This document shows, piece after piece, positions 7,236 through 64,000 of a stretch of 64,000 nt of DNA. The DNA lies in NCBI GenBank assembly GCA_963712135.1, contig CAVQGV010000026.1:388671-452670 (forward strand), in the 5' to 3' direction. How positions within the stretch are numbered: the first letter of the stretch is position 1; each line of letters opens with the position of its first letter. A program made the position numbers and the translations under genes. Source of the DNA: an uncultured Gammaproteobacteria bacterium (GTDB lineage: Bacteria > Pseudomonadota > Gammaproteobacteria > Pseudomonadales > Halieaceae). Under the pieces are notes generated by a model. It saw nothing but the letters and a program-made list of their open reading frames with translations, did no database searches and was not told where the DNA came from.

Positions 7236-8031
7236 TCATAAAAATTGTTGGCACGGCGTGATCAGGGGGAAATCTCCCTGCGGATGGCTACTGATGATGA
7301 CATCAACATCAAACACCTCTTTGAACAATGCTTGCGTGAATACCTGATCTGGCGTTCCCAGGGCTGCCTGCTGGCCCTTGTCCAATACCAGTATCTGGTC
7401 TGCGACACTGGCTGCCAGGTTGAGATCGTGTATCACCAGCACCACGCTGCAACCCCGCTCGGGCCAGCTGACGTATTGCCAGGAGCACCTGTTGCTGATG
7501 GGCCAGGTCCAGGGCCGAGGTGGGTTCGTCCAGTAGTAGGAGTCTACCCGATCAGGGACTTCTCGCCACAGACCTGCGCGAATACTCTGGCCAGTTGCGT
7601 GCGCTGTTTCTCGCCGACGGAAAGTTGCGTGTAGAGCCTGTGCCTCAGGTGCAGTGTGTCGGTAAGTCGCAGCGCCTCGCTCCACGACTTCCCTGTCTGT
7701 CTGATGGCCGCTGCTGTGGGGTATGCGTCCCAGCATGACCACTTCATCAACGGTATAGGGGAAGTTAAGCAGGGACATCTGTGGCAGCACGGCCATGTGT
7801 TGTGCGCGGTCCTGCGGTGACCACTGCGCCAGTGATCGACCACCGAAGGTCAGTTGGCCCGGTGCTGATCCGGATGTCACCTGCGATGAGCTGCAGCAGG
7901 CTGGACTTACCCGCGCCGTTGGGCCCGGCGAGTCCGAGTACAGCGCCGGGTTCGAGGGTAAAGGTAATGTCCTTCAGCAGCGCCTGGCCCCAGGGTGCAG
8001 CATGGACACCGGCAAGTTGTAAGGTGCTCAC
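7236..8031 (-). pseudogene. btuD: ABC transporter ATPase (BtuD/FecE-like) broken into 3 frames
   Basis: Walker A GPNGAGKSSLL (ORF 7765-8031), ABC signature LSVGEKQR (7544-7843) and C-terminal domain (7236-7880) lie in three different frames. Confidence 0.7.
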
Positions 8032-11624: not shown

Positions 11625-11880
11625 AGATCAATGGCGATTGAGGGAGGGGATCTGGAAACGCAATGCAAGCATTGAGCAACCGTGTATGAAGCCCTCCGCT
11701 CCATCGTTGCGCATCACCAGGCAGGTGTCGGGCTCACAGTCGTCGACTGTATACCGTTGCGGGGGCAGCGGTGGATTGGGCAATTGCCGTTCCACACTTC
11801 CCATTTAACCCACCCAGTGAACAACTAAAATGTGCACGGTGGGCACCTGGTTACGGGGTGGACTCTAGAGATACGGAGTG
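11625..11880 (-). ncRNA. cobalamin (B12) riboswitch in the btuB leader
   Basis: Minus-strand read shows TTAAATGGGAAGTGTGGAACGGCAATTGCCCAATCCACCGCTGCCCCCGCAACGGTATACAG, matching the conserved AxGGGAA...GTG..AA...GCTG.C.CGCAACGGTA core of the E. coli btuB leader; positioned directly 5' of btuB. Confidence 0.6.
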
Positions 11881-43493: not shown

Positions 43494-44350
43494 TGGCCGA
43501 TTTGCCCGTATCTCCCATTTCCCCCGGCAGCGAACCGGTGCACCACTACGATACCGTGGTGGGCGCCTGGGGCGATCTGCTTGAGGAAGACCTGCATTAC
43601 GGCTATTTTCACAGTGGCAATGAATCACTCATTGAAGCCACCAATGAACTCACCAACCAGATGCTGAACCTGGCTGAGCTTCGATCTGGTCTTCATGTGC
43701 TAGATGTGGGCTGCGGTACTGGTAAAGCCGGCTGCCGCTTGGCGGGGGAGTACGCTGCGAGGGTAACCGGCATTTCGCCCAGCAGCGCCTGCGTAGAAAG
43801 AGCCCAGGCGTTGGCGAGGGAAACGAGGCAGCAGGATCTCGCTATTTTTTGTCACGGCGATGGCACATCTCTGTCCTTCGATGACAATACCTTTGATTGC
43901 GTTTGGGTGATGGAATCCTCACACCTGATGCAGGACAAGAAGGCGCTTATCTCAGAGTGCACGCGGGTACTTCGTCCCGGCGGACGTGTTGTACTTTGCG
44001 ACATCATGGTCAAACGCAAACTTACTTTGGAAGAAGTTATCGAGTACCGGGACGAATTTCTGCTTCTTAGAGACGTCTTCGGTCGAGCGATCATGGAGCC
44101 ATTGCAATTCTATCGGCAGCAGTTCGAGTCCAAAGGGTTAAATGTTGCTGCCGCGTCAGATATTTCTGCGCCCACATACCACACTTTTGCGCGGTGGCGC
44201 CAGAATGCCTATGAAAACCGGGAGAGCGTTTGCAGAATGATTGGCGAGCGTGCCTGGGAGCAATTCATATTATCCTGTGATGTGTTGGAGCAGTTTTGGC
44301 AGAGTAATATCCTTGGCTATGGAATTATCTGCGCGCACAAATACGCGTAG
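43493..44350 (+). CDS. class I SAM-dependent methyltransferase (CFA-synthase / mycolate-MT-like)
   Basis: 285 aa; VLDVGCGTG motif I; N-terminal YDTVVGAWGDLLEEDLHYGYF resembles the CMAS family; start overlaps the SDR stop. Confidence 0.7.
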   Translation: MADLPVSPISPGSEPVHHYDTVVGAWGDLLEEDLHYGYFHSGNESLIEATNELTNQMLNLAELRSGLHVLDVGCGTGKAGCRLAGEYAARVTGISPSSACVERAQALARETRQQDLAIFCHGDGTSLSFDDNTFDCVWVMESSHLMQDKKALISECTRVLRPGGRVVLCDIMVKRKLTLEEVIEYRDEFLLLRDVFGRAIMEPLQFYRQQFESKGLNVAAASDISAPTYHTFARWRQNAYENRESVCRMIGERAWEQFILSCDVLEQFWQSNILGYGIICAHKYA

Positions 44351-44354
44351 CGAC

Positions 44355-45893
44355 TCAAAACTGGAAGTACAGAAATTCGCTGACTTCCGTCAGGTTTACA
44401 ATAGATGCAACGGCCAGAACAGCAATACCAACAGACCAGCCCCGACTGGCCTGCCACTGCAGACTGATCACTGGTTCCCGACCCGCCAGCGGTTTGTCAA
44501 TGGCAACCTCGCAGTGGCGAAAAAGCTGGTAAGTGCTGGGCAGTATCCAGCAAGCTGCCAAAGCCATTGCAAGAAGCAGGAAAACCACACTGACTGCGTA
44601 GCTTTCCCCGAATAACATGGAAGTGAGTTGAAGGTTTTTATTACCCTTCAGTGCGGCCATGTACTCAGGCACAAACTGCAGCCCATCCCAGTTAAGGATC
44701 GCGTTATACACATGGCCAGCTGAGGCCAGATTATCTGCGCGAAAAACCACCAGGGTTAACGCCACCACCAAAAACGTAAGCAGCTGTGCCGCTGCCTTAT
44801 AATCTCTTCTGCCCACCAGTCCCAGCGGCCCGGAAACCTTGATCCGCCAGAGTTGATGGATCACCACGTAACTACCATGACAAAGTCCGTATACGACAAA
44901 GGTCCATCCGGCGCCGTGCCAGACCCCACCGATGAACATCGTGGCGAACAGGTTAAATCTTTGCCTTGCAGGACTACAGAAAAATCCGCCCAGGGGAGTG
45001 TAGACATAGTCCCTGAGGAAACGAGAAAGAGTGGCGTGCCACATACGCCAGAAATCGCTGATATTCAATGCTCGATAAGGCGAAAAGAAATTTACTGGAA
45101 GTTTGATTCCGAACATGCAGGACAGTCCAATAGCCATATCGCAGTAACCGGAGAAATCAAAATAGAGCTGGAAAGCGTAACTGAATGCTCCGGCAAGCGC
45201 ATCGAGTGTAGAAAGATTGCTGCCCTGCGACGCCAGAGAAAAAACTGGCGTTGCGAACTTGGAAAAGCCATCGGCAATAACAACTTTCTTAAACAGGCCA
45301 ACAACCATGATAGATAGCCCAATACTTAGATTAGTATAGGTTCTTGAACGGTCGGTGAGCGTTCTGAACTGTGACAACATCTCTCGGTGATGCACGATTG
45401 GACCAGCAATCAGCTGCGGGAAAAAAGCAACAAATAGGCAGTATTCAAGGAATCCGTGGTCTTCGGTAAGCCCTTTGCGGGAATCCACCAGATAGGCAAT
45501 CTTCTGGAAAGTGAAAAAAGAAATCCCAAGGGGCAAGATGATCTTCTCGAACTCGAAGCTCCAATCCATTGCCACCCGGAAATTATCAATAAAGAAATTA
45601 GCGTATTTAAAATAGCCCAGCAGGCCGAGATTGAACAGCACTCCGAGCACCAGCCAATGACGACCCTGATTTTTCCCGCCCTTGGCAAGCAAGGTGCCCA
45701 GAAAATAATTCACGCAAGCGGAGAAGATCAGCAGCAGCAGGTAGACTGGGTTCCACCAGCCATAAAAAAACATTGAGGAACTAACCAGCCAGATCAAGAT
45801 CAGGCGAAGATTGCCGACTTTTTGCAGAAACAGGAATCCCGCCAACACCACGGGTAGGAAGAAAAAAAGAAACTCACTGGAATTAAATAGCAT
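44355..45893 (-). CDS. MBOAT-family membrane-bound O-acyltransferase (AlgI/DltB-like)
   Basis: 512 aa; conserved FWRRWH-like motif (FWRMWHATLSRFLRDYVYTPLGG) and GGVWHGAGW; catalytic His region. Confidence 0.85.
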   Translation of the reverse strand: MLFNSSEFLFFFLPVVLAGFLFLQKVGNLRLILIWLVSSSMFFYGWWNPVYLLLLIFSACVNYFLGTLLAKGGKNQGRHWLVLGVLFNLGLLGYFKYANFFIDNFRVAMDWSFEFEKIILPLGISFFTFQKIAYLVDSRKGLTEDHGFLEYCLFVAFFPQLIAGPIVHHREMLSQFRTLTDRSRTYTNLSIGLSIMVVGLFKKVVIADGFSKFATPVFSLASQGSNLSTLDALAGAFSYAFQLYFDFSGYCDMAIGLSCMFGIKLPVNFFSPYRALNISDFWRMWHATLSRFLRDYVYTPLGGFFCSPARQRFNLFATMFIGGVWHGAGWTFVVYGLCHGSYVVIHQLWRIKVSGPLGLVGRRDYKAAAQLLTFLVVALTLVVFRADNLASAGHVYNAILNWDGLQFVPEYMAALKGNKNLQLTSMLFGESYAVSVVFLLLAMALAACWILPSTYQLFRHCEVAIDKPLAGREPVISLQWQASRGWSVGIAVLAVASIVNLTEVSEFLYFQF

Positions 45894-46247
45894 AGATTGG
45901 CCGTGTTCATCTCGGCTGCTAATTCGTTGACGTCCTTGGCCCGAAAGTATATCTTCTTTTACGATAAGTCAGTAGGGATAATGCGAGTCAGAATCGGTAG
46001 CTAGCTATCGGTTTGCAGCATATTAGCTATCTGCGGATTGATATGCTGGTTTCCACACAATCAATACCCAGCAATACATGCGGTATCAACATCGAGTTAT
46101 CGAAGACGGTTATCCTGGCTCTACCGGATTGCGTGGTATACAGTGGCAATCCCGCTGGCTTACTGCCGGTGTAGCGGGGCTATTGCTGAGTATCAGACTG
46201 CCCAACCTAATCGCCGTCAATGAATTTATATACTTTCAGTTCTATTT

Positions 46248-47450
46248 ATGAAGCAATATCTTTTCGGCACTTTAGTACTCATATTTGGCTTCTGCTTGTT
46301 GGTAGCCCTGTTCAATTACCGTGTCGACCCCTACGCAATTTATCACTACAAACAGGTGAATGCAGACTGGCTGAGTCGGATTGATCAGTTCCTCCATTTA
46401 CGGATAACAAAACCTTGGCACGTTGTGCAAATAAAACCTACGGCGATCATTGTGGGGACATCAAGATCTGCATCGGTGAACCCAATGCATTCCACCTGGC
46501 CCCAAAACGCTAGCTACAATCTGTCAATTCCCGGCCTGACGTCGTATGAAATGCTACGATTTATCGAGCATGCCCAGGCTAATGGACCTGTCAGCAAGCT
46601 GATGATTGGGTTAGATTTTGAGGCTTTCATTCATCCGGAGCCACGTTTCCAGTTTGGTTTTGAGGAGTCGCGGATGGCCCGTGATCCCGATGATCTGGCT
46701 TCGGCACATTTTATCTGGCAGCTCATGAGCGATATGAGAAACACATTGTTATCGATGTCGGGTATTAGCCAGAGTGTAATGGCGCTCACCGGCAGTGCGG
46801 AAGTGGGTCGTCGCTATTTTTCGGACGGGACTTGGGAAAGTACCCAATCAAGATTCACGGGTAGACCAGGTTATATCTATATTGGTAAGGAAACTGTATT
46901 TGATCAGCGAAATGAGAAGCTGAGCCTTGATAGAAATCTGGACAATTTCGCTGACATATTGCGCTTTTCCCATCGACAGAAAATAGAAACACGCCTGTTC
47001 ATCACACCCCAACATGTATTCATGATTGATCTTTGGTGGCGTCTGGGTTACAGAGAATTGTGGAAAGAGTTCCACCGCCGTCTGGTAGAGGTAAATGATG
47101 CGGTAGCTATTGAGATGGGAGTTGAGCCTTTTCCTATATTTGGATTTAATCATCTACGGGGGGTTGTCGATGAGCCTATTAGCAGTGCTCAGAATTCCAC
47201 TCGTTCCTTGTTCAGCGATGGCTTGCACTTTCGACCACGACTCGGGAAGCAAATCATGGATGCAGTGTGGACTGATGGTGCTGAGTTGGGAGCTAAACTG
47301 GATGTCAATTCAGTTAATTCCTATCTGTCTCAGGTAGAACAGTTGCATCATACATTCGAGTCTGCCAATACAGAACTCACTGCAGCGTCTACGTCGGGGG
47401 ATTTCCCCCGAATTGGAATAGCTGGCGGCGGTATTTGTGGCCGAAGCTAA
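46248..47450 (+). CDS. N-terminally membrane-anchored extracytoplasmic protein, candidate DltD/AlgJ-like O-acyl transfer partner of the MBOAT
   Basis: 400 aa; single N-terminal TM; IVGTSRSA segment in the position of the DltD GSSE-type nucleophile motif; divergently paired with the MBOAT gene; function is inferred from context. Confidence 0.35.
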   Translation: MKQYLFGTLVLIFGFCLLVALFNYRVDPYAIYHYKQVNADWLSRIDQFLHLRITKPWHVVQIKPTAIIVGTSRSASVNPMHSTWPQNASYNLSIPGLTSYEMLRFIEHAQANGPVSKLMIGLDFEAFIHPEPRFQFGFEESRMARDPDDLASAHFIWQLMSDMRNTLLSMSGISQSVMALTGSAEVGRRYFSDGTWESTQSRFTGRPGYIYIGKETVFDQRNEKLSLDRNLDNFADILRFSHRQKIETRLFITPQHVFMIDLWWRLGYRELWKEFHRRLVEVNDAVAIEMGVEPFPIFGFNHLRGVVDEPISSAQNSTRSLFSDGLHFRPRLGKQIMDAVWTDGAELGAKLDVNSVNSYLSQVEQLHHTFESANTELTAASTSGDFPRIGIAGGGICGRS

Positions 47451-47558
47451 TGACTTGATGCCAGAATCTTTTTGCCGCAAGGGCTCGCCCGCTGGTTTTC
47501 GCAGAAGCGCCGTTGAGTAGCGTATAATCAACTTTGTATACTTATAGGAGAAGAGTAT

Positions 47559-48104
47559 ATGAACAAGGGTGTGTTGATTGGAACCGTGTTAGGAGCTGGT
47601 CTGGCAACTGCCTACGGTGGTTTTGCAGGTTACCGGATGTTGAGCCAACCCGAGTACGCGCAGGTGGTGGATGTCACTACAGTCACCGAGAGCGTCAAAA
47701 CGCCGCGCGAGGAGTGTCGTGACCAGGTCGTGACACGGAAAAAGCCGGTCAAGGATACGCATCAGGTTACCGGCACCGTGCTTGGTGCAGTTGCCGGCGG
47801 CTTGCTAGGCGATGCGATCGGCGGCGGGGGCAAGAACACTGCAGCAAAAATTGCTGGTGCGGCGGCGGGTGGTTATGCCGGTAACAAAACGCAGGAAACA
47901 ATGCAGGAAAATGACACCTACCAGACAACGGAACGCGTGTGCAAGACGGTAGTTGATGTCAGCGAGCGCACCGTGGGTTACGATGTTAAATATCGCATCG
48001 GCGATGTCCCCGGTGAAGTGCGTATGGATCACGATCCCGGTGACACCATTCCACTGGAAGACGGAAAACTGGTGCTTTCCCGTGCCACTGCAGCAGCTGA
48101 TTGA
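47559..48104 (+). CDS. glycine-zipper (SlyB/YMGG-like) small outer-membrane/periplasmic protein
   Basis: N-terminal GxxxG repeats (GTVLGAGLATAYGG) and Gly-rich middle; 181 aa. Confidence 0.5.
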   Translation: MNKGVLIGTVLGAGLATAYGGFAGYRMLSQPEYAQVVDVTTVTESVKTPREECRDQVVTRKKPVKDTHQVTGTVLGAVAGGLLGDAIGGGGKNTAAKIAGAAAGGYAGNKTQETMQENDTYQTTERVCKTVVDVSERTVGYDVKYRIGDVPGEVRMDHDPGDTIPLEDGKLVLSRATAAAD

Positions 48105-48131
48105 AGGATTAGGTAAATTGGAGTTGAATCA

Positions 48132-48407
48132 ATGAGCACTATTGCGTATCGCGACTTCCTGCCACAGGAGACCCCGCGCAGTGGATTGTTTGGCGGCGTG
48201 GATTATTCCGATTTCAACAGCTGTGTGGCCGCCATGAATCACTGGCTGAAACAGAATCCAGTTAGCATAGTGCATGTCGAGACAGTTACCTTGCCTAATA
48301 TGCACAGTGTGTATGAAGATGGCTCCAACGATACAGAACTGCACACCACAGGTCGTACGGTCTGGTACCAGTTTGTGCGGCTGTGGTATTCGGTCGCAGC
48401 GATATAA
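48132..48407 (+). CDS. small conserved hypothetical protein, paralog B (91 aa, full-length form)
   Basis: Paralog of 34730-34918; shares the GLFGGVDYSDFNSCVAAMNHWL..VETVTLPNMHSV core. Confidence 0.45.
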   Translation: MSTIAYRDFLPQETPRSGLFGGVDYSDFNSCVAAMNHWLKQNPVSIVHVETVTLPNMHSVYEDGSNDTELHTTGRTVWYQFVRLWYSVAAI

Positions 48408-48465
48408 GCAGGTAACTATGAGCGCAGACTCGATGCCGTTGGCTGCGCCAGCCCAGTGCGGCCCC

Positions 48466-49844
48466 CTAGATGAGTTTTTTGGGATCTAGCAACGAGGCCA
48501 GTTTTTGCGGTGACAGATCCGTCATTTGTGCAGCTACTTCAATGATCGGGCGGCTTTCCTGGTAGGCGCGTTTGGCGATTTCAGCTGCCGTACTATAACC
48601 GATCTCACGATTCAGGGCGGTCACCAGGATGGGATTTCTCGCCAGGTTGGCCTCAATGTTTGCGCGATTGACCACAAAGTCAGCGATGCACTTATCCGCC
48701 AATGCTGTGCAACTGTTGGCGAGCAGGGTAATGCTCTGCAACAGGTTGTAGGCGATTACCGGCAGCATTACATTGAGTTGGAAATTGCCTGACTGGCCGG
48801 CCACGGTGATGGCAGAGTCGTTGCCAATCACCTGCGCCGCCGCCATTGCTACCGCTTCGGGAATGACCGGATTGACCTTGCCCGGCATGATACTGCTGCC
48901 CGGTTGCAGGGGTTTGAGGCTGATTTCACCCAACCCGGCCAACGGCCCGCTGTTCATCCAGCGCAGGTCATTGGCGATCTTCAGCAGTGCCACTGCCAGC
49001 GTCTTGAGCTGCCCGGAGAGCGCTACGGCAATGTCCTGGCTGGCGAGGGCGGCAAAGAAATTATCTGCCGGTTTGAACGTGGCTGCGCAACTCTCGTTGA
49101 GATAGAAACAGAAACGCGCGGCGAACTGCGGGTCCGCATTGACGCCCGTGCCGACGGCCGTGCCGCCCTGCGCCAACTGGCGCAGCTGTGCGCGACAGGC
49201 ATCGATGCGCTGTGCGGCCTGCACCAACTGTGCGCGCCAGCCAGAGAGCTCCTGCGCCAGGCTCAGCGGCATCGCATCCATCAGGTGCGTTCGCCCCGTC
49301 TTGATACAGTCGGCCAGGCCTGCTTCGCGTGCGGCGATGACTTCCGCCAGGCGGTGCAGGGCAGGCATGAGTGAATTGGCCAGCGCCAGCTCGGCACTGA
49401 CGTGAATTGCGGTGGGAATCACATCGTTGCTGCTCTGGCTGCAGTTCACATGGTCGTTGGGATGCACGGCCTGTCCCGACTGGCGGGAGGCGAGGGTGGC
49501 GATCACCTCGTTGGCATTCATATTGGTGCTGGTGCCCGAACCGGTCTGGAACACATCGACGGGAAACTGCTCCAGATGCTGTCCGTCGGCGATGGACAGT
49601 GCGGCAGCGGCGATGCTCGCCGCCAGTGCGGGGTCCAGCAGACCCAGCTCGGCATTGGCGCGCGCAGCAGCGGCTTTGATCAGGCCGAGAGTGGCAATAA
49701 AACCTGCTGGCATGGGCATGCCGCTGATCTGGAAATTCTCCACGGCGCGCTGTGTTTGCGCGCTATAAAGCGCTGTTGCGGGCACCTGCACCTCGCCCAG
49801 GCTGTCCTGTTCTATCCGCATATCACTCATCGCGATGGTCCTCG

Positions 49845-49848
<4 letters not shown>
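48466..49848 (-). CDS. fumC: class II fumarate hydratase
   Basis: 460 aa; GSSIMPGKVNP signature. Confidence 0.9.
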
Positions 49849-52527
<2,679 letters not shown>

Positions 52528-52559
52528 GGTGGCAGTCCTGTTCCGACAGTAGCGCACCG

Positions 52560-54825
52560 CAGTATAGAGGATAAACATGCTCCCCGCTGTCACTGTAATC
52601 CGGACGCGCCGACATGGCAGCGGGTACAGTACATACACCCCCGCCAATACCAGAGCCGCCCGGAGAGTTGGCCCCGGGATAGGGGATGTCCTAAACGGTC
52701 GCAAGCATTTCCCGTTGCCGTCGGTCCAGGGCACTCGTGCCAGATTCACGGGCCAACCAATTACCCCGTGATGTTTAGGGGAGCAGCAGACCGCTGTTGG
52801 GTACGACAAAGAGTCGGAGTCTAAACGGATACGTTTGAGTGTCAACAAGGGAACCAGGGAAGCTCGGCTGAGTAGGGTAGTCGCACAGCTAGGCCGGTCT
52901 TCGGACCGACCGAAGCACCTACCGATGAGGCAGCCGAGTGGCGGAGCACCCGTAGTAGTCGGAGACGTGAAAGACGTTCACATGGCGAAGGGGTGCAGGA
53001 TGATTCGTGTTTGGATGACTGAAGTGTTCTTTAATTTGGAGGCTTCCAAATGAACATCGAAGAAGTCCAGCGTAGGCTCTGGGAGCAATCGCAGGCCCAC
53101 AAGCAACACAGGGAGTCAGGAACACCGCTCTTTCCGACCAACCCGTACGGTGGCCGGATTCGGAACCTGATGGACCTGATGCACAATCCCACGTGGATTG
53201 CGGCAGCTTGTGACCGCGTGCTGAAACGCTCCCGTGGCAAAGCAGCAGGCGTAGACGGGGTGACGGCTCGCGAGTTCGCAAGAACCGTGAGTCCCGCCTC
53301 GAACAACTACGCCTGGAGTTGAAACGCGGTACGTATCGGCCTCTGCCGCTACGACGGGTGGAAATTCCCAAGGCTAACGGCAAAATGCGCCAGCTTGGAA
53401 TCCCCTGTCTGCGGGACAAGATCGTCCAAGAGGCAATACGTATGGCGTTGGAACCCATCTTCGAGGTCGAGTTCCATGACAACTCCTACGGGTTTCGGCC
53501 CAACCGGAGCACACACCACGCGGTGGCCCGTTGCCGCCATATGGCATTGACGGGCTTCACCTGGATCATCGAGGGCGATGTCAAGGCTTGCTTTGACGAA
53601 ATCTCGCACAAGGCGATCCTGCGGTGCGTCAGGGAAAAGGTGATGGACAACAAGTTTCTCGCTCTGATCCACCTCCTGTTGAAGGCGGGCGTGGAAATCG
53701 ACGGCGTCGTTCATCCGACCGACCAAAGGGGTTCCTCAGGGTGGCGTGGTCTCACCGCTCCTGGCCAACGTCGTGCTGAACAAATTGGATTGGTTTCTCC
53801 ATTCCAAGGGGTTCCACGGCAACGGCCAGCGAGAGGCGGTGCATCGCCACGGCCTGCCAAATGTCCGGTTCTGCCCGCTACGCCGACGATTGGTGCGTGT
53901 TTCTCACGCGCTGCAATCGGCAGCATGCGGAACGGCTACGGGACGAGATCCGCGACTTCCTTCGGGAAACCTGCGGGCTCGAACTGTCGGCCGAAAAGAC
54001 CCGGATTACCCACGTGAGAGACGGGTACGACTTTCTCGGATTCAACATCTCTGTAGGTGTTGGCAAATCCGGGAAGTTGGTGCCCAAAGTCAGGGTAGGC
54101 CGCAAGGCAATCACCAACATCCAGACTCGCTTGGGCGAGGCCCTTCGCTATCGCCCAATGCAGGAAAGCATCTCGGTCCGTCTTGTTCGTGCTTCGGCAG
54201 TCATTCGTGGCTGGTCGAACTACTTCAAGATTGCCCACAACTTCTCGCAAGTTGCTCACGGGCTGGACCACAAGGCTTTCTGGATCGCGGTGAAAGCGAT
54301 ATGTCGGAAGGAAGACATATCGACTGCCCAAGTGTCTCCGCAGGTACCGTCTTCGGAACACCATTGGGGTTCACGAAGACTGTACCCTGGCCCGCTTCCA
54401 AGATACGGCGTCGACGTACTACTGTCCGTCACCGGAACCGTATCAACCCGGCTGCAACCAGCCGTACCTGGAAGACGACGAATGGGAGGCGGCTTTCGTC
54501 TTCCACGAACGTCAACGGCCTGGTTGCGGAGACCTCAAGTGGAAGGCTTTGGTTCGCGACGGCTTTCATTGCCGTGGCTGCGCGGTCGTGGTCACATCCA
54601 AGACCTCGCACGCGGACCATATCGAACCTGTCAACCGCTTTGCCAACCTCGCAATGGCGAACGACTTGGACAACATCCAGACGCTTGTGTCTGCGATGTC
54701 ACAAGCTCAAAACTGCGAGGGAACAATGAGAATAGAATCATCTGGAAAGCCGGATGCTTGGAAACTTGCACGTCCGGTTTGGGGTTGGGGCCGGGGTGAA
54801 ACTCCCCGGCCTACACCACATGCCC
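52560..54825 (+). mobile_element. group II intron (domains I-IV with RT/maturase/HNH ORF); 3' end (domains V/VI) not confidently found and apparently cut at the GC break
   Basis: About 490 nt structured leader with hairpins before the IEP ORF; IEP has RT motifs (YRPLPLRRVEIPKANGKMRQLGIPCLRDKIVQ; YADDWCVF), maturase X and C-terminal HNH (HADHIEP...); only a weak GNRA-capped hairpin GGCCGGGG-TGAAAC-TCCCCGGCC at about 54806-54827. Confidence 0.6.
53050..54799 (+). pseudogene. group II intron-encoded reverse transcriptase/maturase/HNH endonuclease, in at least 4 frames
   Basis: RT domains 0-4 (53050-53760), RT5-7 with YADD (53861-...), X and HNH (to about 54730) are each in different frames. Confidence 0.7.
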
Positions 54826-55540
54826 TGGCGCTGCCGTCGAGTTCGAGCCCCCGGGCACATTCCCCGAGGTGACCGGCTATCGGGGCGGCGGCCCGCACGG
54901 CTTGGCCCCGGGCGAATGGACCGACGACACCAGCATGGCGCTGGCCGACCCCCCTGAGCGGCCCCATCCCGCAATCGCCCGGAGATACTTGGTCGGTACT
55001 TCACCATGCGCTAGTGCGCGGAACGCGGGGGCTGCCAGGCGGATTGACCCTTTCCAAGTTGCTCACGAAACATGGGCTAAAGTGAAGCAGCGCGATCAAC
55101 ATAGCTCGATGGGCTATCGAGCACGCCCGGGACGGGTTGGCCCGCCGATCTTCATCCCTCGCCCAATCGCAGCCGCTCCAGAAAATCGGACCGAATCCGG
55201 TCCCGGACGCCTCCCACAGCAGCGACTCCGCGAGGGCCTGCCCACGCCGGGCCTCCAACTCCGCCAGCCGGGCCGCATGGAACGGAGCACAGCATGGCTC
55301 GACCGATGGCCATCCAGGCAAGCTGGTACGACAATCCACAATATTATGACCTCGCGTATCGCTCAGGGCATGATCCGCGGAGGTGCCGTATCGGGTGGAT
55401 TGATCGGCTATTGCGGAGCCTGTTGCATTGCCGATGGATGGACCCGGCGTTGGACGTCGGGTTCGATAACACCGAAGGTGGCCTCGTACCGCTGGATGGT
55501 CATCATCAAGGCTTGCAACATCCGTTTCGCCGAGAAATAG
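54826..55540 (+). CDS. ADP-ribosylglycohydrolase-family protein, 5'-truncated at the GC break; later part of the ORF doubtful
   Basis: Frame begins mid-domain with ...VEFEPPGTFPEVTGYRGGGPHGLAPGEWTDDTSMALA, the conserved ARH motif, with no upstream N-terminus. Confidence 0.4.
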
Positions 55541-58905: not shown

Positions 58906-59154
58906 CTAATGAGGGCAGCTCGCGGTGTCAAACAGCCGGCCATCCGCTTCGGCGAGTTCCTGCCGGACCTCCATGCGAATCTCCGCAGAGCTGGTTCCGT
59001 CCCTTTCCCCGGCATATCCCCCAGAAATTGGTTTCTTGGCCGCCTGGAAGGCGTGCTCCACGGTCGGGTATTCGATGCGCTCAAAGGTAATCGGCGCAGG
59101 GTGGAAGTTCGACAGGAAGCTGTACTCTCCCTGGAAACGGTCGATTACTTGCAT
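58906..59154 (-). pseudogene. NADAR-domain (YbiA-like) protein, truncated or frameshifted
   Basis: MQVIDRFQGEYSFLSNFHPAPITFERIEYPTVEHAFQAAK is the NADAR N-terminal core; ORF ends after about 80 aa. Confidence 0.45.
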
Positions 59155-59382
59155 CGTTGGCTTCACGGAATTGACGGGAATCGAACCGCGGGCACCGCTA
59201 TTGTACGAAGATCGGCGTTGGAAACAGGAAGCCCGGAGGCCGGGATCGCTCCCAGCCTCCGGGCATCGCATTCGATCAGAGCAGGTTCACGACCCGCTCG
59301 GCCAGGCCCTTCTCGCCCAGCACGACGTTCAGCTTGCCGCTGGCGGCGACCTTCTCCAGGACTTCCAGCTCCCGGAGCCGCA

Positions 59383-60399
59383 TCAGCGTCGGGTTGTCCT
59401 GCCAGCAGCTTGGCCGTGTTGGCCTGGCTGCGCATGGCCGCCGTCTCCTCGCGGCGGACGATGAGGTTGGCCTCGGCCGCCTTCTTGGCCTCCGTGACCT
59501 TGTTCATCAGGTCCTTCATGTCGCCCGGCAGGATCACGTCGCGGATGCCGACCGAGACGATCTCCAGACCCAACTCGGCCACCCGCTGGCGGACGATCTC
59601 CTCCAGCTCGCTCGGCCACGGCGTCCTTGTCGGCCAGGAACGGGTCGAGTTCGCGGGCGCCGACCACCGCCCGCAGGGCCAACTGCGCCTCGCGGTACAG
59701 CGCCTGGCGGGCGTCGTCGGCCGCGCTGACCGCCTTGCGGGCGTCGACCACGCGGTAGGTGACCACCGCGTTCAGGCGCAGCGTGACCTTGTCGGCCGTC
59801 ATGATCTCCTGGCCGCCGACGTCGAGCATCGTCTCGCGCAGGTCGACCGGCACGAGCTTGACCTCGGCCACGTTCTTCCAGAAGGCGTACTGGCCCGGCG
59901 GCAGCGTCTCGACGTAGTCGGCCGTCCACGAACAGCACGCCCACGTGGCCCTGCTCGACCGCGCAGACGTCCAGCACGCGGTCGGCCATGCGCCGAGCGG
60001 ACGATCACCTGGAGGTCCTCGTGCTCGAAGCGGACCTTGCGGGCGTCGACCACCTCGACGCGCCACCTCGCGGAAGCCGGTCCAGTAGGCGTACAGGCCC
60101 GGCGGCAGGATGTGGCTGAAGCGGCCGTCGATCCAGACCAGCGCCCGCTCGTAGTCCTTCAGGTCCAGCACCACGGCGCGGTCCTCCAGCGCACCCGACT
60201 TGACGATCACGTCGAGCTTCTCGTGGACCAGCCACGGGTCGCGCTGCGAGACGACCTCGACCTTGACCTTGCCCAGCGGGTCGAAGAACCAGTGGCGGCC
60301 CGCGCCGAGCAGGCCCTGGAACTCGCCGTCGCGGAAGTACAGGCCCATTTCGTAGCTGCGGATCTTGATGGTCTTCAGCACAGCACAGTCATCCTTCAC
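59383..60399 (-). pseudogene. SPFH/band-7 domain protein with 2-3 N-terminal repeat modules, frameshifted
   Basis: SPFH core (VDLRETMLDVGGQEIMTADKVTLRLNAVVTYRVVD) preceded by repeated approximately LPPG(L/Q)YA(Y/F)W...EV modules, one of them in another frame (59799-60053). Confidence 0.45.
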
Positions 60400-60827: not shown

Positions 60828-60905
60828 GTGTTGGTACGGGAGTCGAACCCGCGACAGCCAGATTCATGGTCTGGTGCTCTACCACTGAGCTAACCTCGGT
60901 TGACA
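60828..60905 (-). tRNA. tRNA-like gene (T-loop GGGTTCGACTCC, D-arm AGCTCAGTGGTAGAGC); acceptor pairing imperfect, anticodon loop CCATGAA (possibly CAT)
   Basis: Manual fold; the acceptor stem could not be paired cleanly. Confidence 0.35.
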
Positions 60906-61009
60906 CGACCATCGGTCAGAACCCATGTACGGAACACACGTCGCCAACCGCCTCGTTGGAGGACAGGGCGACGTGCGCCGCTGGCCCGGCCGTATCATTG
61001 CTTCCAAAG

Positions 61010-61081
61010 AGACGCCGGTGGGAGTCGAACCCACTTGAAGCTGCTTTGCAGGCAGCCGCCGTGCCGTCTGGCTCCAGCGCC
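61010..61081 (-). tRNA. tRNA-Cys (GCA)
   Basis: Acceptor GGCGCTG/CGGCGTC, anticodon loop CTGCAAA, T-arm GTGGG-TTCGACT-CCCAC. Confidence 0.7.
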
Positions 61082-61091
61082 ACGTTGTCAG

Positions 61092-61164
61092 TGTCCTCGC
61101 CAGGAATCGAACCTGGTCTTCGACCTTCGCAGGGTCGCGTGCGAATCCGGCACACTCCGAGGAC
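61092..61164 (-). tRNA. tRNA-Arg with anticodon GCG as read (G34 unusual)
   Basis: Acceptor GTCCTCG/CGAGGAC; anticodon stem CGACC/GGTCG, loop CTGCGAA. Confidence 0.5.
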
Positions 61165-61179
61165 GTATTCTCGTTCAGC

Positions 61180-61251
61180 GCCCCGCCGAGGAATCGAACC
61201 TCGTCTTGCAGTTTCGAAGACTGCCGTGCTGATCCGGCACACTCGCAGGGC
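61180..61251 (-). tRNA. tRNA-Arg (TCG)
   Basis: Acceptor GCCCTGC/GCGGGGC; loop CTTCGAA; T-arm CGAGG-TTCGATT-CCTCG. Confidence 0.65.
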
Positions 61252-61259
61252 ATGTCAAG

Positions 61260-61331
61260 TGTCTCGACCAGGAATCGAACCTGGATCTGGACCTTCGGAG
61301 GGTCCTATGCGATCCGTTACACCATCGAGAC
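61260..61331 (-). tRNA. tRNA-Arg (CCG)
   Basis: Acceptor GTCTCGA/TCGAGAC; anticodon stem GGACC/GGTCC, loop CTCCGAA. Confidence 0.65.
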
Positions 61332-61337
61332 ATTCAG

Positions 61338-61409
61338 CATCCCGACCTGGAGTCGAACCAGGACCAGGACCTTAGGAGAGCCCCGTGCGATCCGCTACAC
61401 CATCGGGAC
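61338..61409 (-). tRNA. tRNA-Arg (CCT), tentative
   Basis: Acceptor GTCCCGA/TCGGGAT; anticodon stem with G.U pairs, loop CTCCTAA. Confidence 0.5.
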
Positions 61410-61420
61410 ATACACACCAG

Positions 61421-61493
61421 AGCCGACGACTGGATTTGCACCAGCATCGATGCGGTTTACAAAACCGCCGCCTCTCTGTTCGGCCACGTCGGC
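61421..61493 (-). tRNA. tRNA-Thr (TGT)
   Basis: Acceptor GCCGACG/CGTCGGC; anticodon stem GCGGT/ACCGC, loop TTTGTAA; T-loop TGCAAAT. Confidence 0.6.
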
Positions 61494-61500
61494 AATCAAG

Positions 61501-61571
61501 CAGGAGCGCGAGGAGTCGAACCCCGTCCGGCGGCTTTGGAGACCGCCTGCTCTCCCAGGAGCACACTCCTG
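61501..61571 (-). tRNA. tRNA-Trp (CCA), tentative
   Basis: Acceptor AGGAGTG/CGCTCCT; loop CTCCAAA; followed by hairpin GGCCCCCGG..CCGGGGGCC (61571-61608), which is probably the terminator of the adjacent HNH gene. Confidence 0.4.
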
Positions 61572-61615
61572 TATCGGCCCCCGGCCTTGCGGACCGGGGG
61601 CTCTTGGCGTAACGA

Positions 61616-62214
61616 CTACTCTCGCAGCGTCACGTTCCAGTACGCTTCGCTGACGAACTTCGACCAGCTTTCGATCCGCACGTCGTGGTCCGCGTACAGC
61701 GGCTTCCACGTCGGCCGGACCGGCTGCTTGCGCAGCCGCATCCGCGCCTGCTCCGGCGTGCGGTCGGCCTTCCGCTTGTTGCAGGCCATGCACGCCAGCA
61801 CGCAGTTCTCCCAGCTCGACACGCCACCCTGCGACACGCGGCACGACGTGGTCGATCGTCAGTTCCTCGCTGCCCGGCTGCGCACCGCAGTACTGGCAGG
61901 TGTAGTGGTCACGCTTGAAGATGTTCCGCCGGCTGAAGGTCACTGGGCCACCGGCAGCCGGTCGTAGCCGCGTCAGCGCGACCACCTCCGGCACCCGCAG
62001 CCGGAACCGCACCGCCTGGATGAACGGCTCGCCGTCGCGCGGCCGCAGCTTCGACCAGTCCTCCCAGGTGTAGAGCTGGTAGTCGGCCGGGTCCACGACG
62101 CGGGCCGACTCGTTCCACAACAGCACCAGCGCCCGCGCCACGGTGGCCACGTTCACCGGCTGCCAGTTGCGGTTCAGGACCAGCGTCGGCCGCTGGAGTA
62201 TTCTCGGGGTCATG
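61616..62214 (-). pseudogene. HNH homing-type endonuclease, one frameshift
   Basis: HYTCQYCG...IDHVVP (first frame, start ATG 62212-62214) and ...[20 protein letters not shown] (second frame) form the HNH motif; embedded in the tRNA array. Confidence 0.6.
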
Positions 62215-62234
62215 GTCACGTCCTTTCCATCAAG

Positions 62235-62309
62235 GGTGTCCGGGCGGAGTCGAACCCCCACCTTCTGGTTCACAGCCAGCCGTGCAGAAACCGCTACACC
62301 ACAGACACC
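62235..62309 (-). tRNA. tRNA-His (GTG) with encoded G-1
   Basis: G-1 pairs with C73; acceptor GTGTCTG/CGGACAC; loop CTGTGAA; one T-stem mismatch. Confidence 0.6.
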
Positions 62310-62350
62310 ATATGCGGGCCGCCGTCCTACCGGGCGACGGCCCGCTCGAA

Positions 62351-63166
62351 TCAGTCGAGAAACGCCAGATGCCGCATGGAGGCCGCCTGGCTCTCGGTGT
62401 TCGGCACGACCCGGTGCCACCCGTTGAGCTTGACCGTCTTGTGGTCCGGGTGGCGAATCTTGCCGCGAACGTACACTCCGGCGTCCCGCCGCATCACGCG
62501 CCACGGCAGCCGCTTCTTGGCCGGGTTCTCGGCGATCAGTCGCCGATACGCCGACTCGCTGATTCCCTGCGGGTACTCGAAGCAAACGTAGACGTTCACT
62601 CCGCCGCTCCGGTACAGGAACTCAGCCCAATGCGGCTTGCCGCGTCCGCGTGCCAGCGGTTCATTGCTCAGCACCAGCTTCGGGTCCACAACCAGGTCCG
62701 GCTCGGGGATGAAGAACCATTCCCCCTGCCGGATGAAAGCCTTGTTGTGGCGCCGGTTGCGGTGCCGCGCCTTCAGTCCCTTGCGGGCCTGGGCCGCCAG
62801 CACCTCCGAGGGCTTGAGGGCCTCCATGGCGGTGCGGACGGTGGCCACGCCCGACGTCTCCGGCACGGCCGCAGCGAACCAGTCCCGCTCGTCGTGGCCG
62901 CAGAGGAACTTGTGCTTCTCCTCGCGGTGGCCGTCAGGCTCGCGGACGAGCAGCAACAGGTGCCGCTGGCCGGGCTGGATGTCCAGGACCTCCAGTTCCC
63001 GCTCCGCGTCTTCGCCGAGGGTGACATCGAAGAACGGGCCATGCCCGTCCCGGCCGATGTCCACGGCGAAGCCGGTGAAGCGGGAGCGCCGAATCGTCGA
63101 CCGCACGTTCACCTTGAGCCGTGCGCCCATGCGGGCGAACTGCTTCTCCAGTAACGTGGTATCCAT
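62351..63166 (-). CDS. hypothetical protein (phage-like context)
   Basis: 272 aa from MDTTLLEKQ; no recognised domain; in-frame upstream extension not used. Confidence 0.3.
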   Translation of the reverse strand: MDTTLLEKQFARMGARLKVNVRSTIRRSRFTGFAVDIGRDGHGPFFDVTLGEDAERELEVLDIQPGQRHLLLLVREPDGHREEKHKFLCGHDERDWFAAAVPETSGVATVRTAMEALKPSEVLAAQARKGLKARHRNRRHNKAFIRQGEWFFIPEPDLVVDPKLVLSNEPLARGRGKPHWAEFLYRSGGVNVYVCFEYPQGISESAYRRLIAENPAKKRLPWRVMRRDAGVYVRGKIRHPDHKTVKLNGWHRVVPNTESQAASMRHLAFLD

Positions 63167-63323
63167 AACCTTTCCTTTGTGTTGAGGATCATGGCGGCGC
63201 ACGACGCCGCCATGAACGATTGTCAGTCTCGAACAACAGACGCAGGTCGGATTGTTCTGGGCATCAGCATCGCAACACTCCTTTCGCCATAGGGACACGT
63301 CGTCCCACGCAAAGGTTCTCCAG

Positions 63324-63395
63324 CACCCCGACCAGGAGTCGAACCTGGAACACCTCGTTAGAAGCGAGGCATGATTTCCGTTTCACCATCGGGGC
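63324..63395 (-). tRNA. tRNA-Arg (TCT)
   Basis: Acceptor GCCCCGA/TCGGGGT; anticodon stem CCTCG/CGAGG, loop CTTCTAA. Confidence 0.6.
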
Positions 63396-63415
63396 ACATA
63401 ATCCGGCACACCAAG

Positions 63416-63502
63416 CGGAAGGCAAGGGAGTCGAACCCTCATCTCCACGGGGGAGAACCGCGTTAGCAGAGCGGCCCGGCCAACCGTATCCGGCTACCTT
63501 CC
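63416..63502 (-). tRNA. tRNA-Ser (GCT), type II long variable arm
   Basis: Acceptor GGAAGGT/GCCTTCC; loop CTGCTAA; 87 nt with extra arm. Confidence 0.55.
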
Positions 63503-63528
63503 GTAATCATCGATCCATTTCGATCCAG

Positions 63529-63599
63529 TGGACCGCCGGGGAATCGAACCCCGATTTCCTGGGTGCAAACCAGGCGTCTTCCCGTTGGACCAGCGGCCC
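63529..63599 (-). tRNA. tRNA-Ala (TGC)
   Basis: Acceptor GGGCCGC/GCGGTCC; anticodon stem CCTGG/CCAGG, loop TTTGCAC. Confidence 0.65.
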
Positions 63600-63611
63600 G
63601 TATCATCCGAG

Positions 63612-63682
63612 AGGTCCGTCCGGGAATTGAACCCGGTCTTCCTCCTTACCACGGAGGTGTGCTGCCAAAACACCTACAGACC
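63612..63682 (-). tRNA. tRNA-Thr (GGT)
   Basis: Acceptor GGTCTGT/ACGGACC; anticodon stem CCTCC/GGAGG, loop GTGGTAA. Confidence 0.6.
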
Positions 63683-63691
63683 ATTCGCAAG

Positions 63692-63764
63692 TGATCCCGG
63701 ATGGAGTCGAACCATCACTTTCCTGGTTGTCACCCAGGCGTCTTTGCCGTTGGACCACGGGATC
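63692..63764 (-). tRNA. tRNA-Val (GAC)
   Basis: Acceptor GATCCCG/CGGGATC; anticodon stem CCTGG/CCAGG, loop GTGACAA. Confidence 0.65.
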
Positions 63765-63772
63765 GTTCACAG

Positions 63773-63846
63773 TGACCGAGGTGGGAGTCGAACCCACAGG
63801 CACGAGGCTCTCGACCTCGCCGCTTTGCCAATTTGCGTACCCGGTC
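63773..63846 (-). tRNA. tRNA gene, anticodon uncertain (loop reads TCGAGAG; GAG?)
   Basis: Acceptor GACCGGG/CTCGGTC and T-arm GTGGG-TTCGACT-CCCAC are good; anticodon arm non-canonical (C33). Confidence 0.4.
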
Positions 63847-63850
63847 AGTG

Positions 63851-63917
63851 GCGGGTCCGGGGGTCGCACCCGGCGGTCCAGGCTTATGAGGCCCGGCTGA
63901 GCACTGGCCCACCCGCG
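63851..63917 (-). tRNA. tRNA-Met/Ile (CAT)-like, acceptor imperfect
   Basis: Loop CTCATAA; T-arm CCGGG-TGCGACC-CCCGG; acceptor 6/7 bp. Confidence 0.4.
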
Positions 63918-63923
63918 CAAGTT

Positions 63924-63990
63924 GCAGGCCCCGGTATCGAACCGGGCGCACCGGCCTTATGAGAGCCAGTTGGGCACCTGCCGCGCCTGC
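63924..63990 (-). tRNA. tRNA (CAT)-like
   Basis: Loop CTCATAA; T-arm CCCGG-TTCGATA-CCGGG; near the window end. Confidence 0.4.
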
Positions 63991-64000
63991 AATAAGTGGC

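Follow-up and report, generated by a model that had tools for sequence, protein, structure and literature searches.

A planctomycete-type transfer RNA array with an embedded HNH endonuclease on a contig assigned to Halieaceae

The stretch of DNA analysed here (the window) comprises 64,000 nucleotides (nt) of contig CAVQGV010000026.1, assembled from an uncultured gammaproteobacterium of the Halieaceae, and ends in a tight run of transfer RNA (tRNA) genes at 60.8-64.0 kb that is interrupted by two open reading frames (ORFs), one of them encoding an HNH endonuclease. This run is the 3' third of an array of ~45 genes that continues past base 64000. It is ordinary for a known class, the L-arrays or tRNA array units with an HNH gene, and it is of planctomycete type, not phage. 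We consider it likely that the run represents the 3'-terminal third of a sporadic Planctomycetota array carrying a spare tRNA set under the control of a leader, which lies outside the window and is known from the sequences of relatives alone. Two features would go beyond current descriptions of such arrays: the second embedded protein, here called hyp271, with its RNA-repair neighbourhood, and a candidate attenuator at the start of the array. A preliminary description of this DNA had already proposed a mobile-type tRNA array with an embedded HNH gene, and the architecture is indeed that of tRNA array units and L-arrays (Morgado & Vicente 2018, PMC5966550; Santamaria-Gomez et al. 2021, PMC8421152).

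In the whole 64 kb, ARAGORN called 15 tRNA genes; every one of them lies between 61009 and 63917 and is encoded on the minus strand. Such a run had been proposed in the preliminary description as a check on its count of at least 17 minus-strand tRNAs, with fewer than about 10 speaking against it; together with a CAT tRNA at 63922-63991 and a tRNA-like element at 60833-60895, the 15 calls give 17 array members, and the count stands. Thirteen of the 15 exceed the gathering score of the Rfam tRNA model, and several array tRNAs score low, at 26-33 bits. Seventeen genes in 3.16 kb correspond to a density of 5.4 per kb with the two ORFs counted in. The intergenic spacers are 1-25 nt, except around the two ORFs and in a 113-nt gap before the last element. 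A 3'-CCA is encoded by none of the array tRNAs in the window, anticodons are single-copy except for CAT, and the gene order is non-periodic, without a repeating unit. Neither a sigma-70-like promoter nor a minus-strand terminator was found in 60.3-64 kb.

Read along the minus strand, the run begins with two CAT tRNAs, type A (63922-63991) and the ARAGORN-called tRNA-Met(CAT) type B (63848-63917). These are followed, all as ARAGORN calls, by tRNA-Leu(GAG) (63772-63846; Rfam 48.2 bits, seven compensatory pairs, 10 orthologues), tRNA-Val(GAC) (63691-63764; 59.1 bits, five compensatory pairs, 0 non-canonical cells), tRNA-Thr(GGT) (63611-63682; 47.3 bits), tRNA-Ala(TGC) (63528-63599; 58.1 bits, G3:U70 kept), tRNA-Ser(GCT) (63415-63502; a long variable arm, 10 compensatory pairs, 11 orthologues) and tRNA-Arg(TCT) (63323-63395; 58 bits, seven compensatory pairs). 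Then come hyp271, an intact ORF of 271 aa (62351-63166), tRNA-His(GTG) (62234-62308; 47.4 bits), whose G-1 is genome-encoded and read from the sequence, and the HNH gene (61616-62213; PF01844, 198 aa after repair); both interrupting ORFs of the preliminary description are real. The remainder, again called by ARAGORN, consists of tRNA-Trp(CCA) (61500-61570; 32.7 bits, an atypical D-arm, 10 compensatory pairs, nine orthologues), tRNA-Thr(TGT) (61420-61493; an extra base in the variable region at ~61448 relative to all orthologues), tRNA-Arg(CCT) (61337-61409; 45.1 bits), tRNA-Arg(CCG) (61259-61331; 55.8 bits), tRNA-Arg(TCG) (61178-61251; 29.8 bits for a partial match, four compensatory pairs), tRNA-Arg(GCG) (61091-61164; 10 compensatory pairs, 0 non-canonical cells, an extra D-loop base in the window) and tRNA-Cys(GCA) (61009-61081; 44.8 bits), and the tRNA-like element closes the run. 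All anticodons listed earlier from the letters alone were right, including the G-1 of tRNA-His and the G34 of one tRNA-Arg; Trp-CCA and Leu-GAG had been overlooked.

Three array members depart from the usual tRNA form. The type A CAT tRNA was missed in the window by both ARAGORN and Rfam. It folds into a cloverleaf with a 7-bp acceptor stem and a miniature D-arm (a 3-4 bp stem and a 4-nt loop), is 98.6% identical to L002 8383-8452 and L007 2176-2244 (L-numbers denote related loci fetched for comparison), and has orthologues that ARAGORN does call as tRNA-Met in L008, L010, L030 and L031. Type B has a C1xC72 mismatch, a mini D-arm and the T-loop UGCGACC, with orthologues in L026, L082, L007, L002, L008 and L010. 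Both CAT tRNAs have a 4-nt D-loop missing G18G19, and the UGCGACC T-loop is present in one of them, in the window and in L026. This reduction fits a lost contact between D-loop and T-loop. Reduced-D-arm tRNAs are uncommon outside organelles.

The third is the tRNA-like element, which matches the Rfam tRNA model with 47.8 bits over model positions 5-66 only. Its D, anticodon and T arms are present, the anticodon loop is CCAUGAA with C33, and about three acceptor pairs can form. It marks the end of the array, upstream of an SPFH gene, and is conserved with L008 12312-12375 and L074 11296-11385, where the acceptor is unpaired too and the anticodon loop varies per copy (CCAUGAA, CCGAUAA, UUAGAAC). 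We also considered a YrlA-type Y RNA, a partner of Ro60. In YrlA the arm order is permuted. The element has the normal D-anticodon-T order and matches no Rfam model other than tRNA, and this candidate was rejected.

The same gene order, with the same ORF positions, was found in 11 further loci (L001, L002, L006, L007, L008, L010, L026, L030, L031, L064 and L082) and in reduced form in L035 and L074. Overall, some 15 Planctomycetota loci have this order. The shared order is Leu(GAG) Val(GAC) Thr(GGT) Ala(TGC) [Ala(GGC)] Ser(GCT) Arg(TCT) / hyp271 / His / HNH / Trp Thr(TGT) Arg(CCT) Arg(CCG) Arg(TCG) Arg(GCG/ACG) Cys. In the relatives, ~28 more tRNA genes lie ahead of this block, the first of them tRNA-Phe, and ARAGORN makes 37 tRNA calls in the L002 array. 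The fixed order of the pan-array runs to ~45 genes, which between them serve all 20 amino acids and nearly every codon box. It opens with Phe Glu Pro Pro Ile Lys Ile(UAU) Lys Thr Gly Pro Asn Ser Gly Gln Gln Ser Ser Ala Val Leu Leu Asp Leu Tyr Glu and continues with Leu Met Met Leu Val Thr Ala Ala Ser Arg / hyp271 / His / HNH / Trp Thr Arg Arg Arg Arg Cys / tRNA-like.

Across 14 groups of orthologous tRNAs, 88 of 302 consensus pairs are altered on both sides, and non-canonical cells amount to 62 of 2329. Because this share of the pairs is compensatory in the orthologues, we regard the array tRNAs as functional, not decayed; the alignments indicate selection for the cloverleaf structure. Identity elements are retained as well, namely G3:U70 in tRNA-Ala and the encoded G-1 with C73 in tRNA-His. 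The G34 of tRNA-Arg(GCG) is kept in five of seven orthologues, with A34 in L006 and L010. The preliminary description had left open whether the non-canonical features of the array were real or indel artefacts. Conservation in orthologues argues that the G34 tRNA-Arg, the CAT tRNAs with miniature D-arms and the acceptor-less last element are real, while a few single-base insertions are specific to the window. The array tRNAs also appear, by sequence identity, to form a divergent set separate from stand-alone tRNAs: array copies of tRNA-Ala(GGC) are 77% identical to one another and 51% identical to a canonical tRNA-Ala(GGC) 6.5 kb outside the L006 array, and array tRNAs share 38-52% identity with stand-alone planctomycete tRNAs of the same anticodon.

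With one inserted base removed, the HNH protein matches PF01844 over profile positions 1-47 of 47 (E 2.7e-15) and phrog_16726 over nearly its full length (E 1.2e-35). Its frame in the window is broken by a +1 at ~61835, and a +1/-1 pair at 61972/61943 shifts the frame locally; the gene is intact in seven orthologous loci. A tblastn comparison gave 35% identity (E 4e-22) to the all8564-type gene beside the trn operon of Anabaena PCC 7120 (pCC7120delta, NC_003273.1 52432-52872), which is followed by 24 tRNA genes. Other relatives lie in arrays on plasmids of Mycolicibacterium (29 tRNAs) and Acidiphilium (31 tRNAs). In phages, relatives are located in or beside the tRNA clusters of the jumbo phages Rctr197k and Tunturi_5, Arthrobacter phage Mimi and, as a looser link, cyanophage S-CRM01. 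Five other HNH homologues that we tested had no tRNA within 6 kb. By homology, the HNH endonuclease is one of a family found with such arrays in different phyla and in jumbo phages, an association already reported (PMC8421152, PMC5966550). A role in mobility or homing is the usual proposal for it.

The second embedded protein, hyp271, always lies between tRNA-Arg(TCT) and tRNA-His in the planctomycete array family. It matched no known family or fold and is absent from PHROGs, and a search for the identical protein sequence gave no record. Its neighbours elsewhere are telling. RtcB adjoins it in L096 and L105, the latter with the order RlaP, hyp271, RtcB, HNH, an SPFH gene close by and a tail-fibre-like gene beyond the HNH gene. 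Ro60/TROVE genes lie within a few kb of hyp271 in five planctomycete and three viral loci (L030, L031, L056, L059, L082, L116, L121 and L126). In a clade of hyp271 that is never linked to arrays, a KptA/Tpt1 RNA 2'-phosphotransferase gene follows directly 3', with overlapping ends in some (six loci: L013 185-1628, L022, L024, L028, L046 and L068). RtcB, RlaP, Ro60 and KptA all belong to the RNA-repair modules known from phages and bacteria (Iyer et al. 2021, PMC7824862). Because its neighbours are RNA-repair genes, hyp271 probably acts on tRNA or RNA ends or is otherwise linked to tRNA and RNA repair. It is a widespread protein (~3,900 homologues) found near tRNA clusters, RtcB, RlaP, Ro60 and KptA/Tpt1. 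An assignment as a 2H phosphoesterase was rejected, as there is a single HxT motif only and the fold search gave no support.

A conserved leader of ~150 nt lies upstream of tRNA-Phe in six genome loci (L002 5690-5835, L001, L006, L008, L010 and L082). A pattern scan of metagenomes returned 31 matches (L178-L206 among the relatives), ~22 of them with the whole leader and with tRNA-Phe and the array 87-90 nt later; this spacing holds for the six genome loci too. The landmarks of the leader, in order and ahead of tRNA-Phe, are ...TATCCATTGCGCNNGTGACAC...GCCCGGTGTC...GACATCGGGCTTTTTTT. It has a purine-rich ribosome-binding site and an ORF of 31-34 codons; 27 distinct leader ORFs end in YPLR(M/L/T)-UGA, and indels inside the ORF come in threes. 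A hairpin within the ORF (P1) has four of six pairs compensatory. About 15 nt before tRNA-Phe stands a predicted strong intrinsic terminator, a 10-bp GC-rich stem (98% paired) followed by a U7 tail. The 5' strand of this terminator is complementary (92% paired) to a stretch of 12 nt in which the UGA stop lies, and the resulting antiterminator is the best fold in 27/27 leaders before segment 4, the last terminator strand, exists. All four elements of an attenuator (short ORF, terminator, antiterminator and a coupling position of the ORF) are present in the 27 relatives, with weak covariation in the antiterminator. The leader is a likely candidate for a ribosome-sensing attenuator of a tRNA operon, as far as its predicted folds and coding features go. 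Rfam gave no significant match to it (best Thr_leader, E 0.34), none was found on viral contigs, and in the literature searched no tRNA operon is described as having a leader of this kind.

Under this reading, the array would be transcribed as one unit and cut by RNase P and RNase Z, and a CCA-adding enzyme would complete the 3' ends, since no CCA is encoded. When the leader is efficiently translated, a ribosome on the UGA stop would let the terminator form and the array would stay silent; with ribosomes slow, stalled or absent, the antiterminator would form first and the spare tRNA set would be made. The cell would then have tRNAs in reserve when translation is stressed or tRNAs are damaged, by analogy with the L-array of Anabaena, a silent array that antibiotics targeting the ribosome switch on and that helps the cells to survive (PMC8421152). 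More speculatively, the array family may be a translation back-up module in which the attenuator senses ribosomes and hyp271 is a tRNA- or RNA-repair enzyme of a new fold, perhaps supplying or processing the substrate of bacterial Tpt1; we offer this as a tentative and rather doubtful extension. The substrate of bacterial Tpt1 is a long-standing puzzle.

Several observations weigh against parts of this interpretation. The leader ORF has no third-position excess of variation (0.91/0.87/0.89), in an entropy test that is biased by the search pattern and by RNA constraints. The covariation of the antiterminator is small, and one change in L006 preserves the terminator and not the antiterminator. 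The 5' two-thirds of the array and the leader are inferred from relatives, the window itself showing 17 genes. The supernumerary status of the tRNAs is based on one direct comparison, in L006, and on their distribution. The HNH gene occupies one fixed position in planctomycete arrays, with 69-85% amino acid identity, and this fixed place and conservation suit a maintained component better than free homing.

The distribution of the array was followed through hyp271, which has 3911 homologues, mainly in Planctomycetota metagenomes. A survey with one genome per species gave 569 relatives, and among the best 80 of these 569 loci ~12 have the array, with at least five tRNA genes within 8 kb of hyp271 in 10. 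Carriers include Thermoguttaceae, Planctomycetaceae and Schlesneria. In a neighbour-joining tree of hyp271 the array-linked copies are confined to one of two major clades, both of which mix families. The upstream flanks of 10 arrays have almost no common synteny; downstream, the SPFH gene of the window is common only to L008 and L074, and nothing is common with the closest relative, L006. The array is placed at different loci in different genomes and has a patchy distribution resembling that of horizontal gene transfer. L-arrays and tRNA array units have already been recorded in Planctomycetes (PMC8421152, PMC4758250). An actinobacterial or actinophage origin, as first suggested for the window array, does not hold: the orthologues are all Planctomycetota-type, the closest genome copy belonging to a metagenome-assembled genome (MAG) of the Thermoguttaceae (hyp271 93% identical, on a 7.5-Mb contig) and the closest metagenome contig being L209 (90% identity across 2.6 kb). 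Two loci were binned outside the phylum. L026, binned as Nitrospira, has a planctomycete-type array, and L076 1089-6391, binned as Acidobacteriota, has 27 tRNA genes in a wholly different order, then a hyp271 homologue (55%) and an HNH homologue (37%), so the hyp271-HNH pair is not bound to one array lineage.

How a planctomycete-type array comes to lie on a Halieaceae contig is a separate question. Most of the window encodes ordinary metabolism, and positions 1-52.6 kb resemble the DNA of Halieaceae (Gammaproteobacteria): the fumarase (48466-49848) shares 84-91% identity with proteins of Halioglobus/Halieaceae, and 45980-52591 is collinear with the Halieaceae-like contig L208 (aconitase then fumarase), the synteny stopping at 52591. 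From 52.6 to 64 kb the window is Planctomycetota-like, in tetranucleotide profile (r = 0.86-0.92 vs 0.64-0.74) and in its sequence matches, which are to planctomycete loci. The preliminary description had spoken of foreign-looking DNA next to the array; foreign DNA there is, and the array side itself is the foreign part. A Thermoguttaceae origin of the whole window was rejected, the fumarase and aconitase being Halieaceae-like. At the join between the two parts sits a group II intron on the plus strand (52850-54820, 5' boundary approximate), with an Rfam Intron_gpII match to domain V/VI (54745-54819, 52.3 bits), RVT_1 and GIIM domains, and a frameshifted reverse transcriptase/maturase.

Compared with intact orthologues, the genes from ~50.8 kb to ~62 kb carry single-base insertions; indel artefacts had been considered possible in the preliminary description. 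The aconitase gene has seven, the SPFH gene five and the HNH gene two or three; tRNA-Thr(TGT) and tRNA-Arg(GCG) have one apiece, and others lie in the reverse transcriptase, rhomboid and beta-helix genes. There are almost no deletions in this stretch, and the fumarase gene and everything before ~50 kb look intact. Since the errors start in a gammaproteobacterial gene and cross the junction, we read this stretch as low-quality consensus. The contig is probably chimeric, with Halieaceae-like and Planctomycetota-like DNA joined at the group II intron. Given a chimera and a low-quality consensus, the HNH frameshift is to be taken as an artefact and not as the mark of a pseudogene. In practical terms, what looks here like a gammaproteobacterial tRNA array with an inactivated HNH gene has probably arisen as an artefact of assembly.

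Alternatively, the 11.4 kb of Planctomycetota-like DNA with the array could be truly integrated in a Halieaceae chromosome, through a very recent cross-phylum transfer beside the group II intron. We hold this to be possible, if unlikely. The sequence is unbroken across the window, L-arrays spread by horizontal gene transfer across phyla (PMC8421152, PMC4758250), and arrays of this family carry the labels Nitrospira (L026) and Acidobacteriota (L076) in MAG collections. However, the foreign block retains its Planctomycetota composition and has ordinary planctomycete genes (DUF3467, rhomboid, beta-helix/PKD), the DUF3467 region matching DNA near hyp271 in the Gemmataceae locus L019. Moreover, the join falls exactly at a mobile repeat, in an error-rich stretch that begins ~2 kb earlier, and none of the best 80 of the 569 genome hits is gammaproteobacterial.

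Another alternative places the array in the genome of a phage or prophage, most likely a jumbo phage, with its tRNAs serving phage translation or evading host tRNA nucleases. We consider this improbable. The label phage-like given in the preliminary description is apt insofar as both embedded proteins and some anticodon choices (tRNA-Ile(UAU) and tRNA-Arg(GCG)) have jumbo-phage relatives. HNH relatives lie inside jumbo-phage tRNA clusters, and 88 hyp271 relatives were found in IMG/VR, many on contigs of 100-530 kb with a GC content of 0.28-0.66. Among 33 distinct full-length viral copies, 15 lie within 1 kb of a tRNA gene, and for 19 there are five or more tRNAs within 8 kb; viral hyp271 loci also carry tail-fibre, SbcCD, RtcB and Rnl genes, and the viral loci L098 and L102 share the sub-block Arg(CCT)-Arg(CCG)-Arg(TCG) with the array. 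The array itself, however, does not seem to lie inside a phage. On the downstream side, the one that the window covers, Pfam searches of the ORFs in 52.6-61 kb found no capsid, portal, terminase or tail gene in the 11 kb of Planctomycetota-like DNA alongside, nor replication genes of a phage, and gave instead DUF3467, rhomboid, beta-helix/PKD, NADAR-like and SPFH proteins and the group II intron reverse transcriptase. The orthologous arrays sit on contigs of 0.2-7.5 Mb amid ordinary cellular genes, the flanks of L001 and L002 being cellular, with phage structural genes absent from the flanks of relatives on 0.6-7.5 Mb contigs as from the window. A tblastn search with hyp271 against 50,697 isolate-phage records gave zero matches, blastn of the array region against isolate phages gave short HNH and tRNA matches only, and the leader is absent from viral contigs. 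Finally, viral hyp271 copies are at most 54% identical, vs 69-96% for the closest planctomycete and metagenome copies.

A primary, vertically inherited chromosomal tRNA operon would account for the coverage of all 20 amino acids and nearly all codon boxes, for the conserved tRNA structures and for the identity elements. This explanation is very improbable, as most hyp271 loci of Planctomycetota (among the best 80 of 569) are without the array, and the array is patchy across families and lies at different loci. A canonical tRNA-Ala(GGC) lies outside the L006 array, at 51% identity to the array copies, and housekeeping sets do not typically include tRNAs such as the mini D-arm Met species and tRNA-Ile(UAU). 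The window has no rRNA genes, contrary to what a match to a chromosomal rRNA/tRNA operon would require, and stand-alone tRNA genes are the rule in the phylum (PMC8421152).

Equally hard to credit is a decaying relic, an eroding island in which the tRNAs are pseudogenes and the HNH gene is dead, a picture suggested by the frameshifted HNH, SPFH, rhomboid and beta-helix genes of the window, by the two array members that ARAGORN misses and by the several low Rfam scores, but the same single-base insertions hit the Halieaceae-like aconitase gene (seven, no deletions) and are therefore a property of the assembly stretch and not of the island, the broken genes are all intact in orthologous loci, hyp271 is intact, and the tRNAs show compensatory evolution.

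Other features of the window are less closely tied to the array. The SPFH/Band 7 gene (59270-60399, minus strand; PF01145, five +1 insertions) accompanies the array end and is conserved together with the tRNA-like element, at 86% nucleotide identity in L008 and 78% in L074, where it is intact at 380 and 369 aa. A Band 7 gene is also near hyp271 in the viral locus L105. Beside it, a NADAR-like ORF (58906-59271, minus strand) is a weak domain assignment (PF08719, E 0.0028, below the curated cut-off), and window 59034-59154 within it matches L010 11802-11922, inside the L010 array. Group II introns occur at or in tRNA arrays in three places: inside the L010 array (7788-7864), beside the Anabaena trn operon (ltrA; L086 7624-8983) and ~6 kb from the window array (52850-54820). 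This recurrence may be a coincidence. The 126 nt after the 3' end of the window intron (54820-54945) are 75-76% identical to L015 16651-16777, from a Planctomycetota MAG, and to the viral L148 5568-5687, with no Rfam match. In the Halieaceae-like part, an ordinary cobalamin riboswitch (Rfam RF00174, 56.8 bits) lies at 11703-11865 on the minus strand, near a FecCD-type transporter gene, and a low-GC patch at 44000-48000 (0.46-0.51) holds genes for an MBOAT protein and a glycine-zipper protein and an unassigned ORF of 400 aa. As the Halieaceae-like relatives L207 and L208 have these genes too, the patch is no recent insertion.

Among known systems, the tRNA clusters of jumbo phages with RNA-repair modules (PMC7824862) resemble the planctomycete array in having tRNAs interleaved with HNH genes and a tRNA-Ile(UAU), and in that RtcB/Rnl ligases, RlaP, KptA and Ro60/TROVE adjoin hyp271 relatives. 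They differ in that the window locus has no phage genes, and hyp271 is not among the families named in the text of that work. The tRNA array units of Mycobacterium, found on chromosomes, plasmids and mycobacteriophages (PMC5966550), and the arrays of Acidithiobacillus integrative and conjugative elements and of Firmicutes (Tran et al. 2016, PMC4758250) likewise have densities well above two tRNA genes per kb. In them, too, HNH genes are the commonest embedded coding sequence and one array type appears in varied genomic contexts; the HNH of the pCBMA213_1 array is homologous to that of the window. Unlike those units, the planctomycete arrays belong to another phylum, have another isotype order and show no plasmid, integrative element or prophage backbone around them. 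Array units are defined by at least 20 tRNA genes (PMC4758250) at two or more genes per kb, in the same orientation and close enough for co-transcription, and the window shows 17 array genes up to its end vs this formal threshold of 20.

A further close counterpart is the type case of the L-array, on plasmid delta of Anabaena PCC 7120 (PMC8421152; Puerto-Galan & Vioque 2012), and Planctomycetes are listed among the L-array phyla (PMC8421152). Four traits of L-arrays are found here: the density and common orientation, the non-periodic composition, which accretive A-arrays do not have, the patchy distribution with variable location and the all8564-type HNH gene. Both systems are long, tight, same-strand tRNA arrays, non-periodic and divergent from housekeeping tRNAs, with a patchy spread like that of horizontal transfer, a linked homologous HNH gene (35%) and RNA-repair genes in the neighbourhood. 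The planctomycete array is larger, with ~45 genes vs 24-26, and differs in gene order; its HNH gene is embedded between tRNA-His and tRNA-Trp, whereas that of Anabaena lies upstream, and hyp271 is an extra embedded protein. Control is predicted to differ as well, with a leader ORF and a terminator/antiterminator in the planctomycete relatives vs 9-nt direct repeats over the promoter in Anabaena, the one organism in which the purpose and control of long tRNA arrays have been tested.

The trp, thr and pheL leaders and the antibiotic-responsive bmrB-bmrCD leader are ribosome-mediated transcription attenuators. Like them, the planctomycete leader has a short ORF, predicted antiterminator and terminator hairpins of which only one can form at a time, and a stop codon at which a terminating ribosome would cover the antiterminator strand. 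Unlike them, it precedes a tRNA operon and not genes for amino-acid biosynthesis or resistance, has no run of one regulatory codon and keeps a conserved C-terminus, YPLRx-UGA. This architecture predicts that the spare tRNA set would be expressed when translation of the leader fails.

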